Virus record (IMG/VR): IMGVR_UViG_3300015615_000629 | Location: 32,001 to 96,000 of that record | Origin: a virus | Lineage: Duplodnaviria; Heunggongvirae; Uroviricota; Caudoviricetes | Length of the DNA stretch: 64,000 nucleotides | Strand: one strand, 5' to 3' | Shown: piece by piece, positions 1,618-62,098 of the stretch | Position numbering within the stretch: the first letter of the stretch is position 1 | How the letters are laid out: every line of letters begins with the position of its first letter | Notes under the pieces: generated by a model | The model's database searches: none | What the model was told of the DNA's origin: nothing | Seen by the model: only the letters and a program-made list of their open reading frames with translations | Made by a program: the position numbers and the translations under genes

Positions 1618-2034
1618 TTAAACTTTGGCTTGGGACTGTGGGACAAAAAAGTTGCTATCGTGAAAAATATCTGATTTATGCCTGCACAAAACCTCCCCTT
1701 TAAGAGCATGGTCTTTCCAAAGATTGTAATAAGTTGTAATAAAAGACCTACTAAATTTAGTTGTCCAGAACAAGTCGATAGATGCCAATAATGAATTTTC
1801 TTCATTCCAATGTGGATCAAGTTCTTTTCCTAAGCAAATGTCGCCATTTTCGGTAATATTTGGAAAAAGTATGTACTTTTCTTCTTCGCCAACCAACGCA
1901 AAAACTCTAACATTGAATATATTATCCCTATTCTTAAAACCATAGAATTTTAATGAGGGAAAATTAATTACAAAAATGTCGCCATAAACTGACACAATAG
2001 TTCTGGTTTGGGGTGGGAATTTTTTAGTAACCAT
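1618..2034 (-). CDS. Prok-E2_D / PRTRC protein B-like paralog 1
   Basis: FPSL...FPNITENGDICLG...IDLFWTTKFS. Confidence 0.55.
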   Translation of the reverse strand: MVTKKFPPQTRTIVSVYGDIFVINFPSLKFYGFKNRDNIFNVRVFALVGEEEKYILFPNITENGDICLGKELDPHWNEENSLLASIDLFWTTKFSRSFITTYYNLWKDHALKGEVLCRHKSDIFHDSNFFVPQSQAKV

Positions 2035-2715
2035 TTATGGTTCTACCGTAAAAGTTTGCAATTCACCCAAGCAAATAAAGCGGGTTTTGGGCTTGTCGTG
2101 ATAGCCCTCTTCTTTGCTATCTGGATTGTAAATCTCCCCAGGTGGCAAGACCAATTCACTTCGGTTCTTATGATGATGCCCGAAAATCCATAAATCGGGC
2201 TGATGATAATTGAAACATTCTTGTAACAATTGGCCGGTGGCCGTAACGGTATCCCTCTCGTGATCGAAAAATACGAGCGTATCAGTGCCGAACAACGTCC
2301 GCACAACTTCTAGCGGAGCATCGTGAGTAACCATAATTTTAGGTTTTGCGGCCCGATAGGCTTCAAGTGCCTCCTGTTGTTGAACATAATTAAGTTCCTC
2401 TTCGGGGAACCAATCAATTTTGAACCGTCGCCATTTACGGTCAATCGACCAAGCACCACGGATGAAAAAGAATTCAACGCCGTTGATGGTTTGGGTGCCA
2501 AAGTCCCCAAGATTGTTGGGGCATTCACCGATAATTTCGTAATTATCGTGGTTGCCACCAAAAAAGCGATGATTCAGACTGATGTCGTTAAAAACATCAT
2601 AGGCGAATGAGAAATCGCCAATCTGTACGGAGTAGTCGCATTGCTCGACGACGCTGCGATAACTCTTGTATCGCCCATGCACATCGCCAATGAAAGTGAG
2701 TTTAGAGGGAGTCAT
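2035..2715 (-). CDS. calcineurin-like metallophosphoesterase
   Basis: GDVHG, GDF, GNHD, THDAP and FGHHH motifs. Confidence 0.9.
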   Translation of the reverse strand: MTPSKLTFIGDVHGRYKSYRSVVEQCDYSVQIGDFSFAYDVFNDISLNHRFFGGNHDNYEIIGECPNNLGDFGTQTINGVEFFFIRGAWSIDRKWRRFKIDWFPEEELNYVQQQEALEAYRAAKPKIMVTHDAPLEVVRTLFGTDTLVFFDHERDTVTATGQLLQECFNYHQPDLWIFGHHHKNRSELVLPPGEIYNPDSKEEGYHDKPKTRFICLGELQTFTVEP

Positions 2716-2733
2716 AGGGCTTTCAGGTACAGG

Positions 2734-3132
2734 TTAAAAGGTTAGTTTACCTTGCGGAATTTCGCCAGCAAATATAGAGTTCCAAAACCTATCAATTGAT
2801 TCTAAGGCTATTGCTTGTGGGTCTTTTCCATAAAAGTAAACCGGCCCTAAACAAACAATTCCAGTAAATGCGTCCACATTAGGAAGAAAAGGTGCTCGCC
2901 AAAGAAAAAAGTATTTTCTAAAAAGGACACAAAAGCGTTCCATTTCATAATTATCTTTTATCTTCTTAAGATAAATATCAAATTTTATCGACGGAAACTG
3001 GACATATCTTGTTCTATTATCATATAAACTATCCAAATATAAAACCGTTCGCTTCTTAGGCGGACATATTACAGACAATACATATCTATTTTTGTAGGGC
3101 GGGGAGCACCTTTTTAATTTCTTAAACTTCAT
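2734..3132 (-). CDS. Prok-E2_D-like paralog 2
   Basis: FPSI...LWRAPFLPNV...GIVCLG...IDRFWNSIFA. Confidence 0.6.
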   Translation of the reverse strand: MKFKKLKRCSPPYKNRYVLSVICPPKKRTVLYLDSLYDNRTRYVQFPSIKFDIYLKKIKDNYEMERFCVLFRKYFFLWRAPFLPNVDAFTGIVCLGPVYFYGKDPQAIALESIDRFWNSIFAGEIPQGKLTF

Positions 3133-3254
3133 GGTATCCTGCCGGCCGTTAAATAACTTATAACATAATCCATATCATGCGAGCCAGCAAACTCAAATCT
3201 TGAAGTCCAAAAGTGCTCAATAACCAATTACTTCGATAAATGTAAGTCCCTTTC

Positions 3255-59819: not shown

Positions 59820-60080
59820 TTATTCCCTACTTTTCTTGAGTAGAATCGCGGCGTCAGTTAGATACATGTCGTATTCTAACTTAATTCCAAGCAATTCATT
59901 GGCTTTGTTTAATTCTTCATCATTCTCATCGAACATGAAGTGACCGATTCTGGTGCCATCGGTTACAAAAGCGTTCTTAATGCCTGGATTATCCACCGCT
60001 TCGGCGATGGCTGCTAAAACTTCTGCCACCAAATCCGGAAGGTAGTTAACTTCTTCTTGGCTGCCGTAAACGATTTTCAT
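59820..60080 (-). CDS. hypothetical protein
   Basis: 86 aa, coupled to neighbours. Confidence 0.6.
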   Translation of the reverse strand: MKIVYGSQEEVNYLPDLVAEVLAAIAEAVDNPGIKNAFVTDGTRIGHFMFDENDEELNKANELLGIKLEYDMYLTDAAILLKKSRE

Positions 60081-60691
60081 TGGGTTTGTTTTTGGTGTGG
60101 TAGAGGGGAAGAAAGTTTGTCTAGCGACTGAATGATTGGTTCTAAACTCTCAAGATCGAGTGGTTCAAAAGGTTGAATTTCCTCGACTACAGGAGGTGGA
60201 TTTTCTGGCAAGATTGGCTTGGCTATGTTTGGGTCTAATATTTCGTTATTTTTCCACTTGTGGATAAGACTTGAAAGTTTGTTGAGCCAATTTTTGTTAG
60301 AAAGATCGATTTGTATATAATAGTCCATTTTCGAGATGCTGCGTTCTACACAGAAAAGCTCAGCAGCCGTGAAATATAAACTGTTTACATAAACACCTGA
60401 TCTGGCTCGAATAATATAGCAAGCCCTGTCATTGTGGGTTATTCTAATTGAGGTTATGGTTTTGCCGGTATAATTAACGAATGGCCGTTCCTCCTCATAA
60501 TACGTGGCAGCCTTCCTATATTGAAATTCTAAATCTCTACAAAAAGCGTAGTTATTCCATAACAACAAGGAAATAGGATCGGTTGGTTTCTTCGGAACTT
60601 TAGGTGCTTTTTTAACGAATCGTCGGGACAGGCCGAAACGGTAGCTCAAATAGGCAACAAATGGAAACAAAGCCAACAACACAAAACTCAT
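60077..60691 (-). CDS. membrane-anchored hypothetical protein
   Basis: N-terminal hydrophobic helix. Confidence 0.6.
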   Translation of the reverse strand: MSFVLLALFPFVAYLSYRFGLSRRFVKKAPKVPKKPTDPISLLLWNNYAFCRDLEFQYRKAATYYEEERPFVNYTGKTITSIRITHNDRACYIIRARSGVYVNSLYFTAAELFCVERSISKMDYYIQIDLSNKNWLNKLSSLIHKWKNNEILDPNIAKPILPENPPPVVEEIQPFEPLDLESLEPIIQSLDKLSSPLPHQKQTQ

Positions 60692-60972
60692 TGAAACTTC
60701 CAATCAGGGTATTCCAAAGTCACCAATCGCTTCAATTCGGCTAATGCCGAAGCATCATCTTTGTAAATGCGTTTATCCCAATCGCGACCGTTAATTCCAT
60801 TTATTGCGAGCATAACCTCCTGTGGACTCATTCCCCCACGGCTATTCAGTTTTTCGATATCTTGATCGCAATGATTTTTCTTTGCTTGTTCCTCGAATTT
60901 AAGCATGAACTCGAATGGAACATAAGAAGGTTTTTCGGGATAAGATGCCATTATTCGGAAGTGTTTTACCAT
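60688..60972 (-). CDS. hypothetical phage protein
   Basis: EEQAKKNH..Q....L.SRGGMSP.E motif. Confidence 0.6.
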   Translation of the reverse strand: MVKHFRIMASYPEKPSYVPFEFMLKFEEQAKKNHCDQDIEKLNSRGGMSPQEVMLAINGINGRDWDKRIYKDDASALAELKRLVTLEYPDWKFQ

Positions 60973-61526
60973 TTGTCGAAAGGCTCATCTGGGAAACAGG
61001 GCCAAATTCTGTTGGATTTAACCAATGTATATCCAGGGACTTTTACGATACCGTTGCCCATAAACAGTTGTTTTGGCTTCTTTTTCTTGAACTTGTTTCT
61101 AAACTTTTTAAACTTTTTCTGTTGAAAAAAGAATCTTGTTTGTCTGAGCCTCTTAAAAGTAAGTTTATAAAGGCAATTACTGTAGATGGTTTTGCGTTCT
61201 TGTTTGGTGAGTTTCCTAAAGGATTTCCAACCACCGAGAGCCTTGATTAACAATCTAACGTATTGAAGGTTGTTAAGTTCTGTTACTCGATATTCAGTAA
61301 TTACTTCTCCGTTTGGCAACCTTATTTCACAACCTTTTGTTGTGTTACATGGTTGACACATTATTTGAATATTGTGTTGTTCATAAGTGCCACCAAAAGC
61401 CCCTGGCACTATTCTATCGACCGTAGCTGTATCTGCATTTAATTCGACGCCACAATCGGGACAGGTAATTTTTCCTTTTGAAAGTAATTTTCGAATTAAT
61501 TTTCTTTTGCTGGACGATTGACTCAT
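60966..61526 (-). CDS. HNH endonuclease
   Basis: CPDCG...TVDRIVP...GG.....NIQIMCQPCN..KG. Confidence 0.8.
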   Translation of the reverse strand: MSQSSSKRKLIRKLLSKGKITCPDCGVELNADTATVDRIVPGAFGGTYEQHNIQIMCQPCNTTKGCEIRLPNGEVITEYRVTELNNLQYVRLLIKALGGWKSFRKLTKQERKTIYSNCLYKLTFKRLRQTRFFFQQKKFKKFRNKFKKKKPKQLFMGNGIVKVPGYTLVKSNRIWPCFPDEPFDKW

Positions 61527-62098
61527 ATTAATTTCCCATATTGCGATAATTCTTTAAGAATGCGATATTGCGAAACTGGTGACAGATCGTATTTTACAAG
61601 TTCCGAATGTCCGAACATGAACCTTAACTTTTTGGTAAGATTAAATTCGTAACTAGAAGTAAAAATTTCGGACGGTTCATCACCATAAACTGTTCGTGCA
61701 AAGTTAGATTCCCAAAAATAAGAGATCGTATCTTTAACTATCTTTTCCAATGAAATATTTTTGGGTCTTTCGTGCCTTGTTGTGTAAAGAGCAGGAAAGT
61801 TTCCCAAACAAACAAAAGATTCACCAATATTTGGGCCGTTAAAAACTTTTTCTTTTCTCGAACTTGAATTTGTTACAAGAAGGTAAGGCCAAGAAGTCTC
61901 TTCTACAACATTGAAAATTAAGTAATAATTTAAAGCAGGAAATCTACAGTATACGTGTTCAAATCTTTCTCGCTCATCATCGCATGTGAACAAATTAATT
62001 GTTCGACTACATGCTCTGGTGTGTGTTTTTGCGAGTAGTCTTACAACACGGCCACCCAAAGCATCCGTATGCGATAGTTTAAAATATTTAATTTTCAT
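61523..62098 (-). CDS. Prok-E2_D-like paralog 6
   Basis: RFPAL...FNGPNIGESFVCLG...ISYFWESNFA. Confidence 0.55.
   Translation of the reverse strand: MKIKYFKLSHTDALGGRVVRLLAKTHTRACSRTINLFTCDDERERFEHVYCRFPALNYYLIFNVVEETSWPYLLVTNSSSRKEKVFNGPNIGESFVCLGNFPALYTTRHERPKNISLEKIVKDTISYFWESNFARTVYGDEPSEIFTSSYEFNLTKKLRFMFGHSELVKYDLSPVSQYRILKELSQYGKLI

Follow-up and report, generated by a model that had tools for sequence, protein, structure and literature searches.

The best-described relatives of the genes analyzed here are those of the class 6d operon, which encodes a ubiquitin-like protein (Ubl), a JAB, an E1-like (ubiquitin-activating) protein and an E2-like (ubiquitin-conjugating) protein (Iyer, Burroughs and Aravind 2006, PMC1779556). 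The class 6d E2-like proteins are without the classical His of the His-Pro-Asn (HPN) motif and carry an 'absolutely conserved' His C-terminal to the conserved Cys (PMC1779556). We equate this operon here with the PRTRC cassette and with the Pfam family Prok-E2_D. The class also comprises a ParB-like protein and an alpha-helical protein. To our knowledge, no function has been known for the cassette since 2006, and the tests made to date of ubiquitin-like conjugation in prokaryotes have concerned only host defence (Bil, CBASS Cap2 and Bub). We analyzed a 64,000-nucleotide stretch (the window) of the tailed-virus record IMGVR_UViG_3300015615_000629, in which six genes for E2-like proteins had been noticed, and found that they belong to a family of 69 E2-like genes in the phage genome, one of which stands in a row with genes for a JAB, an E1 and a candidate Ubl. 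Unlike the class 6d operon, the carrier is a 572-kb lytic-type phage and not a plasmid or an integrative and conjugative element, and there are 69 copies, not one.

The IMG/VR record is 572,167 bp long, has direct terminal repeats and is rated 100% complete; the window corresponds to its bases 32001-96000. The large terminase is T4-type, and its best GenBank match was the terminase of the 595-kb uncultured huge phage LR756511.1, with 46% identity. The minus strand carries nearly all genes of the window, which has a G+C content of ~40%. Blastn with a window segment and tblastn with one paralog gave no match among the GenBank phages.

All six E2-like open reading frames (ORFs) of the window are open and lie on the minus strand. 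BLASTP between pairs of the six was weak (best E 7e-6), with several pairs not significant, and we therefore tested them non-circularly by a hidden Markov model (HMM) made from only the 63 paralogs outside the window and run against the 1818 ORFs of the genome. This leave-out HMM found all six at E-values of 2.4e-24 to 3.9e-7 and no ORF outside the family at E<=10, so that the six dispersed, divergent paralogs of the initial annotation were recovered in full. The common motif with an invariant Cys that it had described was likewise seen in an alignment of the six, in which Arg, Asn, Cys and Phe-Trp were invariant. The gene at 1618-2034 (P0001, 138 aa) has the shortest N-terminus of the family, with the motif FPNITENGDICLG, Cys67 and the FW pair at residues 89-90; its leave-out E-value was 9.2e-17, and it matched Prok-E2_D at E 8e-5 with 22.8 bits against a cut-off of 25. 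The gene at 2734-3132 (P0002, 132 aa; LPNVDAFTGIVCLG ... FWNSIF) was found at 2.4e-24 and matched Prok-E2_D at E 0.016. The most divergent of the six, at 11202-11672 (P0003, 156 aa, TTG start), is without the Pro-Asn pair (RNLTSNYEVCMG), keeps the Arg, Cys and FW, and was found at 3.9e-7 (27 bits). The gene at 13492-14160 (P0004, 222 aa; GNYVSDMQVCMG ... FWNS) has long N- and C-terminal extensions and an E-value of 3.5e-9, and those at 15733-16305 (P0005, 190 aa; LPNIGTSLIVCMPG ... FWESEF) and 61523-62098 (191 aa; GPNIGESFVCLG ... FWESNF) were found at 1.5e-18 and 3.5e-14, respectively. A genome-wide list of the family held exactly six members in genome bases 32001-96000, so none was missed in the window. 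Few members of the family are as isolated and divergent as the window copies, whose best paralogs were 22-34% identical to them and mostly hundreds of kb away. A PHROGs search gave no family for the six.

The count of six was right for the window, but the genome total is 69. This number was obtained by iterated HMM searches of the ORF calls, which converged, and a six-frame profile search of the genome, independent of the ORF calls, returned the same 69 copies; some of the family tests (Pfam scan, profile, alignment for the fold model) were run on a set of 68. The copies account for 6.2% of the genome DNA and for 69 of ~895 crude gene calls, and the next-largest paralog family has 6 members. 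A co-expanded partner family, of adaptors or targets, was rejected as a candidate because no other paralog family exceeds 6 members and the one of that size does not adjoin the E2 genes. Large tandem arrays of E2-like genes are found at genome 537-555 kb, 283-300 kb and 343-352 kb, and the closest paralog is <=15 kb away in 41 of the 69 copies, which points to tandem duplication as the mode of growth. All 69 are intact ORFs, none truncated or interrupted, and since the highest identity between any two of them is 52%, every duplication must be old. Identity to the first copy ranges from 12 to 29%, N-terminal extensions from 6 to 54 residues and C-terminal tails from 11 to 99 residues, and beyond the last conserved Phe the sequences diverge completely.

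The family signature reads P..RT[IVL] ... FP....F ... LPN-x7-C[LM]G ... I..FW.[ST].F. Across the family, the Arg and the Cys were present in 69/69 copies, the Pro in 66/69 and the Trp in 65/69. The Asn was found in 51/69 (with His at that position in 9) and lies eight residues ahead of the Cys in most copies; a Gly occupies position Cys-3 in 48/69, and an aliphatic residue stands on either side of the Cys. Asn eight residues before Cys, Gly at Cys-3 and aliphatic flanks make up what we take to be the pattern of classical E2s (HPN...C), which we used as a lead and not as a test. The classical HPN His is replaced, the residue ahead of Pro-Asn being Leu in 42/69, Phe in 9/69 and Ile in 8/69. The invariant residues of the cassette copy are found in the dispersed copies as well. 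A His occurs at +3 to +5 from the Cys in 17/69 copies and anywhere between the Cys and the FW helix in 23/69; the cassette copy has one at +11, and in relatives outside the phage a His after the Cys is likewise not conserved. Eukaryotic non-catalytic E2 variants (UEVs) are without the Cys. Because the Cys is kept in 69/69 copies and the Asn in most, the family fits substrate-specific conjugating enzymes better than decoys, which makes decoys the less likely of these two proposals of the initial annotation.

Prok-E2_D (PF14460) was the only family matched by any copy, always below its gathering cut-off of 25 bits, and a six-frame search of the genome with PF14460 gave four matches, none above the cut-off. 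The profile of 68 copies, searched against 1.84 billion proteins, identified 2453 representatives at E<=1e-3. Among the best 99 non-self matches of these 2453, 51 matched PF14460 at E<=0.01 (best E 6.4e-18, 65.5 bits) and 23 matched PRTRC_B (TIGR03737), for which the best shown had 42 bits against a cut-off of 131. The outside relatives carry the same R / LPN..C / FW signature, are up to 744 aa long and form clusters that are mostly singletons on short metagenome contigs. Two outside representatives (P0011 and P0039) were 99% identical to the paralogs at genome 545654-546169 and 549892-550479, so a strain-level variant of the 572-kb phage has been sampled elsewhere. Two others (P0096 and P0102) were 45-49% identical to specific copies, and this degree of identity suggests that they are orthologous copies in a further relative. 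There was no sequence-level match to PF00179 or to E2 sequences of the PDB, and a 40-residue active-site peptide gave no match among the PDB sequences. When single paralogs or outside relatives served as queries, related-locus searches found nothing in viral, metagenome or genome collections, and a homologous-protein search with the family alignment returned the phage's own proteins only. The Prok-E2_D pattern proposed for the six thus stood as the only family link, with transitive homology through the outside relatives, but no copy rose above the Pfam cut-off. Since the class 6d His is not kept and the cut-offs were not reached, we filed the family as a distinct branch and not as PRTRC protein B; judged by its sequence relatives and predicted fold, it is E2-like and related to Prok-E2_D.

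We modelled one of the six window proteins, that encoded at 1618-2034, by AlphaFold2 with a 68-row alignment (predicted local distance difference test score, pLDDT, 87.8; predicted template modelling score, pTM, 0.80). When the model was searched against 48,161 PDB chains by VIA, ranks 1-31 were all E2s or UEVs, with Z of 3.5-5.0 over ~96 residues at a root-mean-square deviation (rmsd) of 3.2-3.9 A. A second look at the Foldseek top 1000 gave E2s in 50/50 rows (Z 4.4-5.1), and in both VIA searches together 92-100 residues were aligned at 3.1-3.9 A. Foldseek's own top match was Ubc9, at E 0.05. E2 enzymes at the top with a modest Z are in agreement with the ubiquitin-conjugating (UBC) fold that the initial annotation implied, and the weight of this predicted match comes from the exclusivity of E2s at the top, not from Z. 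The modelled copy has no N-terminal helix, and its alignment begins at about residue 32 of UbcH5. For the solved bacterial E2 BilB, by comparison, the match to eukaryotic E2s covers 93-99 residues at 3.0-3.4 A (PMC10557695). The family is therefore predicted, from one copy, to have the UBC fold, a prediction at the level of the fold in which the Cys is not placed residue by residue in three dimensions.

Within the window no E1, JAB or Ubl had been seen, and we found two ThiF and two Prok-JAB matches in the genome, all of them outside the window. One pair belongs to a minus-strand cassette at genome 141.3-143.9 kb with the order sigma-70 family gene, E2-like gene, JAB, E1 and small ORF. The E2-like gene, a 257-aa member of the family, is the first of the E2-JAB-E1 row and is preceded by the sigma-70 family gene. 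The JAB (321 aa) matched Prok-JAB at E 1e-4 and PRTRC_A at 2.8e-9, while the ThiF-type E1 (230 aa) matched PF00899 at 2.4e-18 and PRTRC_ThiF at 7.9e-12 over nearly its full length. The equivalog cut-offs were not reached for PRTRC_A (36.8 vs 101.8 bits) or PRTRC_ThiF (45 vs 144.75 bits). After the E1 comes a 114-aa ORF (P0006), the candidate Ubl, which ends ...FLKPAGTKGA and is followed by a terminator-like hairpin and T-run, read by eye. Looking beyond the window thus yielded the E2-JAB-E1 row and, after it, a candidate Ubl, at 141-144 kb. Tblastn of the cassette E1 against GenBank phages gave no match at E<=1e-8. The E2-JAB-E1 neighbourhood was found for 1/69 copies; the other 68, including all window copies, are detached.

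ESM Atlas leads for residues 37-114 of the candidate Ubl were ThiS, Rad60-SLD/ubiquitin and TmoB clusters (TM 0.54-0.60), all of which are beta-grasp families. A metagenomic homologue, 72% identical, ends in AGTKG, without the Ala.

A viral-contig scan with eight outside relatives led to a 527,112-bp phage, IMGVR_UViG_3300005613_000001 (rated 100% complete), whose terminase is 48% identical to that of the 572-kb phage. In it, six-frame matches to the family numbered 12; searching the same regions by HMM at the level of ORFs raised the number to 13, with an E of only 1e-4 for the thirteenth. The Arg and Cys were kept in 13/13 copies and the F[WF].[ST].F motif in twelve (Trp 10, Phe 1); the thirteenth alignment ends before the motif is reached. 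In this phage two E2-like genes are followed by a JAB, an E1 and a 108-aa ORF. Its JAB is 31% identical to that of the cassette (1e-34) and has an HSH...HSG.D metal site, its E1 is 46% identical (6e-73), and the 108-aa ORF, which ends ...FVKVAGQKG-stop, shares 30% identity (1e-10) with the candidate tag. The fact that the candidate tags of the relatives end in Gly indicates that Gly is the conserved C-terminus, and the Ala of the 572-kb phage therefore looks like a cap for trimming. In Bil, the Ubl is BilA, which ends Gly97-Ala98 and is trimmed by the deubiquitinase (DUB) of that system (PMC10557695). The two cassette-adjacent E2-like proteins of the 527-kb phage (G006; L076 250-1470 and 1464-2555) have 406 and 363 aa, and in both the E2-like domain is flanked on either side by an unannotated extension.

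The third relative, LR756511.1, had neither the family, searched by a profile whose positive control worked, nor the cassette E1. Copy number in three related huge phages was thus 69, 13 and 0, and family and cassette were present or absent together, which is consistent with functional dependence (n=3). The family profile gave no match in five IMG/VR records with related terminases, most of which are fragments. In the cultured Vibrio phages D69, D181 and D148 we found a distant row of an E2_D-like gene, a Prok-JAB and an E1-like gene; in D69, PF14460 was matched at E 4e-4 and Prok-JAB at 1e-8, and the E1-like gene is 27% identical to the cassette E1. Since the profile of the 69-copy family did not match in D69, the relation must be distant.

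We compared the phage genes with the described systems. As in class 6d/PRTRC (TIGR03735-03737), the Cys is conserved and the HPN His is replaced, mostly by Leu, and one phage copy stands with a PRTRC_A-like JAB, a PRTRC_ThiF-like E1 and a small Gly-ended protein. In contrast to class 6d, no His is conserved after the Cys, no copy scores above the Pfam or NCBIfam cut-offs and the window genes are without cassette neighbours. In Bil (BilA Ubl, BilB E2, BilC DUB, BilD E1), a stand-alone E2, an E1, a JAB-type DUB and a Ubl likewise occur together, without an E3 ligase (in the phage no search aimed at a RING or HECT E3 was made); the candidate Ubl ends Gly-Ala as BilA does, and the E2 model resembles eukaryotic E2s about as much as BilB does. 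However, Bil is a host defence that tags the phage tail fibre with one E2 per system, whereas here the phage is the carrier. At the top of both VIA searches, eukaryotic E2s (UbcH5, Ubc9, Ube2T and others) were the best structural matches and the only ones, and in eukaryotes, too, a few E1s serve a repertoire of many E2s; unlike them, the phage family has no sequence-level match to PF00179 or to PDB E2 sequences, the modelled copy is without the N-terminal helix and Z is ~5. Vibrio phage D69 shares the order of E2_D-like, Prok-JAB and E1-like genes, but phage-borne cassettes of this kind, those of the three Vibrio phages included, have one to a few E2-like genes.

Since an E1, a JAB and a candidate tag are encoded elsewhere in the genome, the virus probably tags many proteins by multiplying E2s. 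We give somewhat better than even credence to the reading that the dispersed copies are active, E3-independent E2s that are charged by the phage's own E1 and bring the tag to different targets. The fuller scheme, in which one E1, one JAB and one tag serve dozens of E2s (69 here, 13 in the relative) that diversify the targets in place of E3 ligases, is plausible, though we would put it somewhat short of even. The cassette at genome 141-144 kb would provide the tag; its terminal Ala would be removed by the JAB, the exposed Gly adenylated by the E1, and the tag handed on to the E2-like protein, whose invariant Cys would hold it as a thioester. Homology and gene order are what suggest the trimming, adenylation and thioester steps. 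The conserved E2 core would be the face that meets the common E1 and Ubl, and each copy, like the E2s of bacterial Bil and CBASS, would need no E3 to bring the tag to its own host or phage target. We infer the charging of the dispersed copies by the cassette E1, the role of the small gene as the Ubl and the link between divergence and different targets.

Several observations weigh against active conjugation by this family. The window copies have no adjoining E1, JAB or Ubl, and the cassette E1 is ~50-110 kb away from them. Only about one copy in four has the 'absolutely conserved' His that follows the Cys in class 6d. PF14460 was matched at E<=0.01 by 6/68 copies, the best at 22.8 bits and none above the cut-off, and the phage copies tested gave no match to the NCBIfam model PRTRC_B. 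PADLOC E2 models gave no match to four copies and the cassette E2, except for P0001 against PDLC00876 at E 0.007. The family profile found no E2 among the PDB sequences; its best match there was a TIR domain (TLR1, E 0.01), which we took as chance because it covers 55 residues only and no structural search supports TIR. The structural Z of ~5 is under the level (8) at which the tool regards a match as clear of common arrangements. As for the candidate Ubl, it had no match to Pfam Prok_Ub, NCBIfam or any other family, and its AlphaFold2 model, made from a 2-sequence alignment, had a pLDDT of 42.

The genome has a second E1 and JAB on the minus strand at 280-282.5 kb, near a pilin-like gene, whose product has a prepilin-type N-methylation motif, and another E2-like copy. 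This E1 is ThiF-type and shorter (212 aa, PF00899 3.7e-32), and the JAB has 161 aa. The two resemble the CBASS Cap2 adenylation domain and Cap3-type JABs (PADLOC E1-E2 9e-19, JAB 6e-6); the phage E1s match the adenylation part only of the PADLOC E1-E2 models. No small ORF with a Gly-Gly end was seen at this locus. The second E1 and JAB may form a module of their own, which might, for instance, act on CBASS conjugates of the host. The locus as a whole is at genome 279.9-284.0 kb (L010 1882-6024).

This second locus is one of the points that speak for a different role of the family, in which the E2-like proteins would be decoys or sinks that bind or drain host E1/Ubl defences (Bil, type II CBASS Cap2, Bub), with many versions to match many host systems. 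The CBASS-like E1 and JAB, the high diversification of the copies (12-29% identity to the first), as in an arms race, and the position of the window copies among likely anti-defence or early genes (ArdC-like, GNAT, PARP, helicases) would all suit such proteins. Nevertheless, we consider this role unlikely, because the Cys is kept in 69/69 copies and in all 13 of the second phage, whereas UEVs are without it; because the phage has a complete-looking cassette of its own, which in three phages co-occurs or is co-absent with the family; and because PADLOC E2 models found none of the copies tested apart from the one marginal match. The invariant Cys argues against simple decoys, while a Cys-dependent thioester 'sink' would be compatible with it. 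We hold it to be just as improbable that the UBC fold serves as a scaffold for another job, as a different thiol enzyme or a binding module, and that the cassette copy is the only true E2. One copy in 69 adjoining an E1 and JAB, window copies in unrelated operons, the lack of the conserved class 6d His and the modest structural Z speak for such a scaffold. Against it, the dispersed copies share the invariant residues of the cassette copy, the (L/H)PN-x7-Cys geometry is mostly kept, and, among the three related phages, the number of copies goes with whether the cassette is there.

Least probable, in our judgement quite unlikely, is a gene-family 'accordion' grown by tandem duplication, in which most copies are redundant or decaying and largely dispensable. 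Its growth would account for a nearest paralog at <=15 kb in 41/69 copies and for the wide variation of copy number among relatives (69, 13, 0). On the other hand, no copy is truncated or interrupted, a maximum identity of 52% leaves no recent duplicates, and the two outside representatives with 45-49% identity to specific copies suggest conserved orthologues. The fact that Arg and Cys are kept in all copies after long divergence also indicates purifying selection on each, which again argues against an accordion.

The surroundings of the window copies differ. A constant neighbour gene was rejected as a candidate, since the six sit in unrelated operons. The copy at 15733-16305 lies between an AAA ATPase gene (16305-17429) and a gene at 15054-15764 for an ArdC-N/zincin peptidase. 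The latter, on the minus strand directly downstream of the E2-like copy and the AAA ATPase, combines ArdC-N with a zincin metallopeptidase (MPTase-PolyVal) and looks like an anti-restriction gene. The copy at 61523-62098 is flanked by a DFP/aldolase-like gene (62098-63486) and a gene for an HNH endonuclease (60966-61526). The former, on the minus strand immediately upstream of the copy, encodes a 462-aa fusion of a class II aldolase/adducin domain with a C-terminal DFP (CoaB-like) domain.

Two paralogs had also been reported to end exactly in TAACCTGTACCTGA. This is literally true, but the motif belongs to the start regions of the downstream genes and not to the family. Its TAA is the stop codon of the E2-like paralog, and the remainder lies 5-8 nt ahead of the ATG of the next gene. 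At 2723-2736 (minus) it contains the stop codon of the second paralog and is followed, with the ATG 7 nt downstream, by a metallophosphatase gene (2035-2715), and at 11191-11204 (minus) it contains that of the third paralog and is followed by a GNAT acetyltransferase gene (10599-11183). We found 36 genome matches to the motif (T/A)AACCTGTACC(T/G)(G/A)A at <=1 mismatch, about 30 of them on the minus strand in genome 555-572 kb and 0-90 kb and nearly always before gene starts; further window sites, also on the minus strand, are at 180-193 and 36036-36049. TAACCTGTACCTGA was therefore rejected as a feature of the E2 family, since the part after the stop codon recurs ahead of minus-strand gene starts. 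The motif stands at the Shine-Dalgarno position but is pyrimidine-rich, and one temporal class of genes may have it as a promoter or leader element. It also precedes, as CCTGTACC, a minus-strand gene at 34437-36029, whose 530-aa product combines a WGR domain (E 1.7e-9) with a PARP catalytic domain (E 3.6e-19), a PARP1-type, eukaryote-like architecture encoded by a phage. The window further contains four AAA+ ATPase genes on the minus strand (16305-17429, 21446-22948, 32026-33696 and 39066-40316), one of which is ClpX/ClpB-D2-like and one of which has an nSTAND3 signal. AAA+ unfoldases would be natural partners for a tagging pathway, a link that is hypothetical.

We found no description of E2 expansions in phages in the literature searched, and the main text of Al-Shayeb et al. 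2020, a survey of huge phages, has no mention of ubiquitin. The present phage gives ~6% of its genome to 69 long-diverged E2-like genes, all with a catalytic-type Cys, in addition to a class 6d-related cassette. The human genome, with roughly 40 E2s, has fewer. If the copies are active, they would represent a new way of substrate choice, with many E2s and no E3, an E2-based selection that is unknown in cells, and the family would offer 69 natural variants on one scaffold for the study of E2 target recognition. Active copies would also mean that phages control host or virion proteins at a further level, large and so far unexplored.

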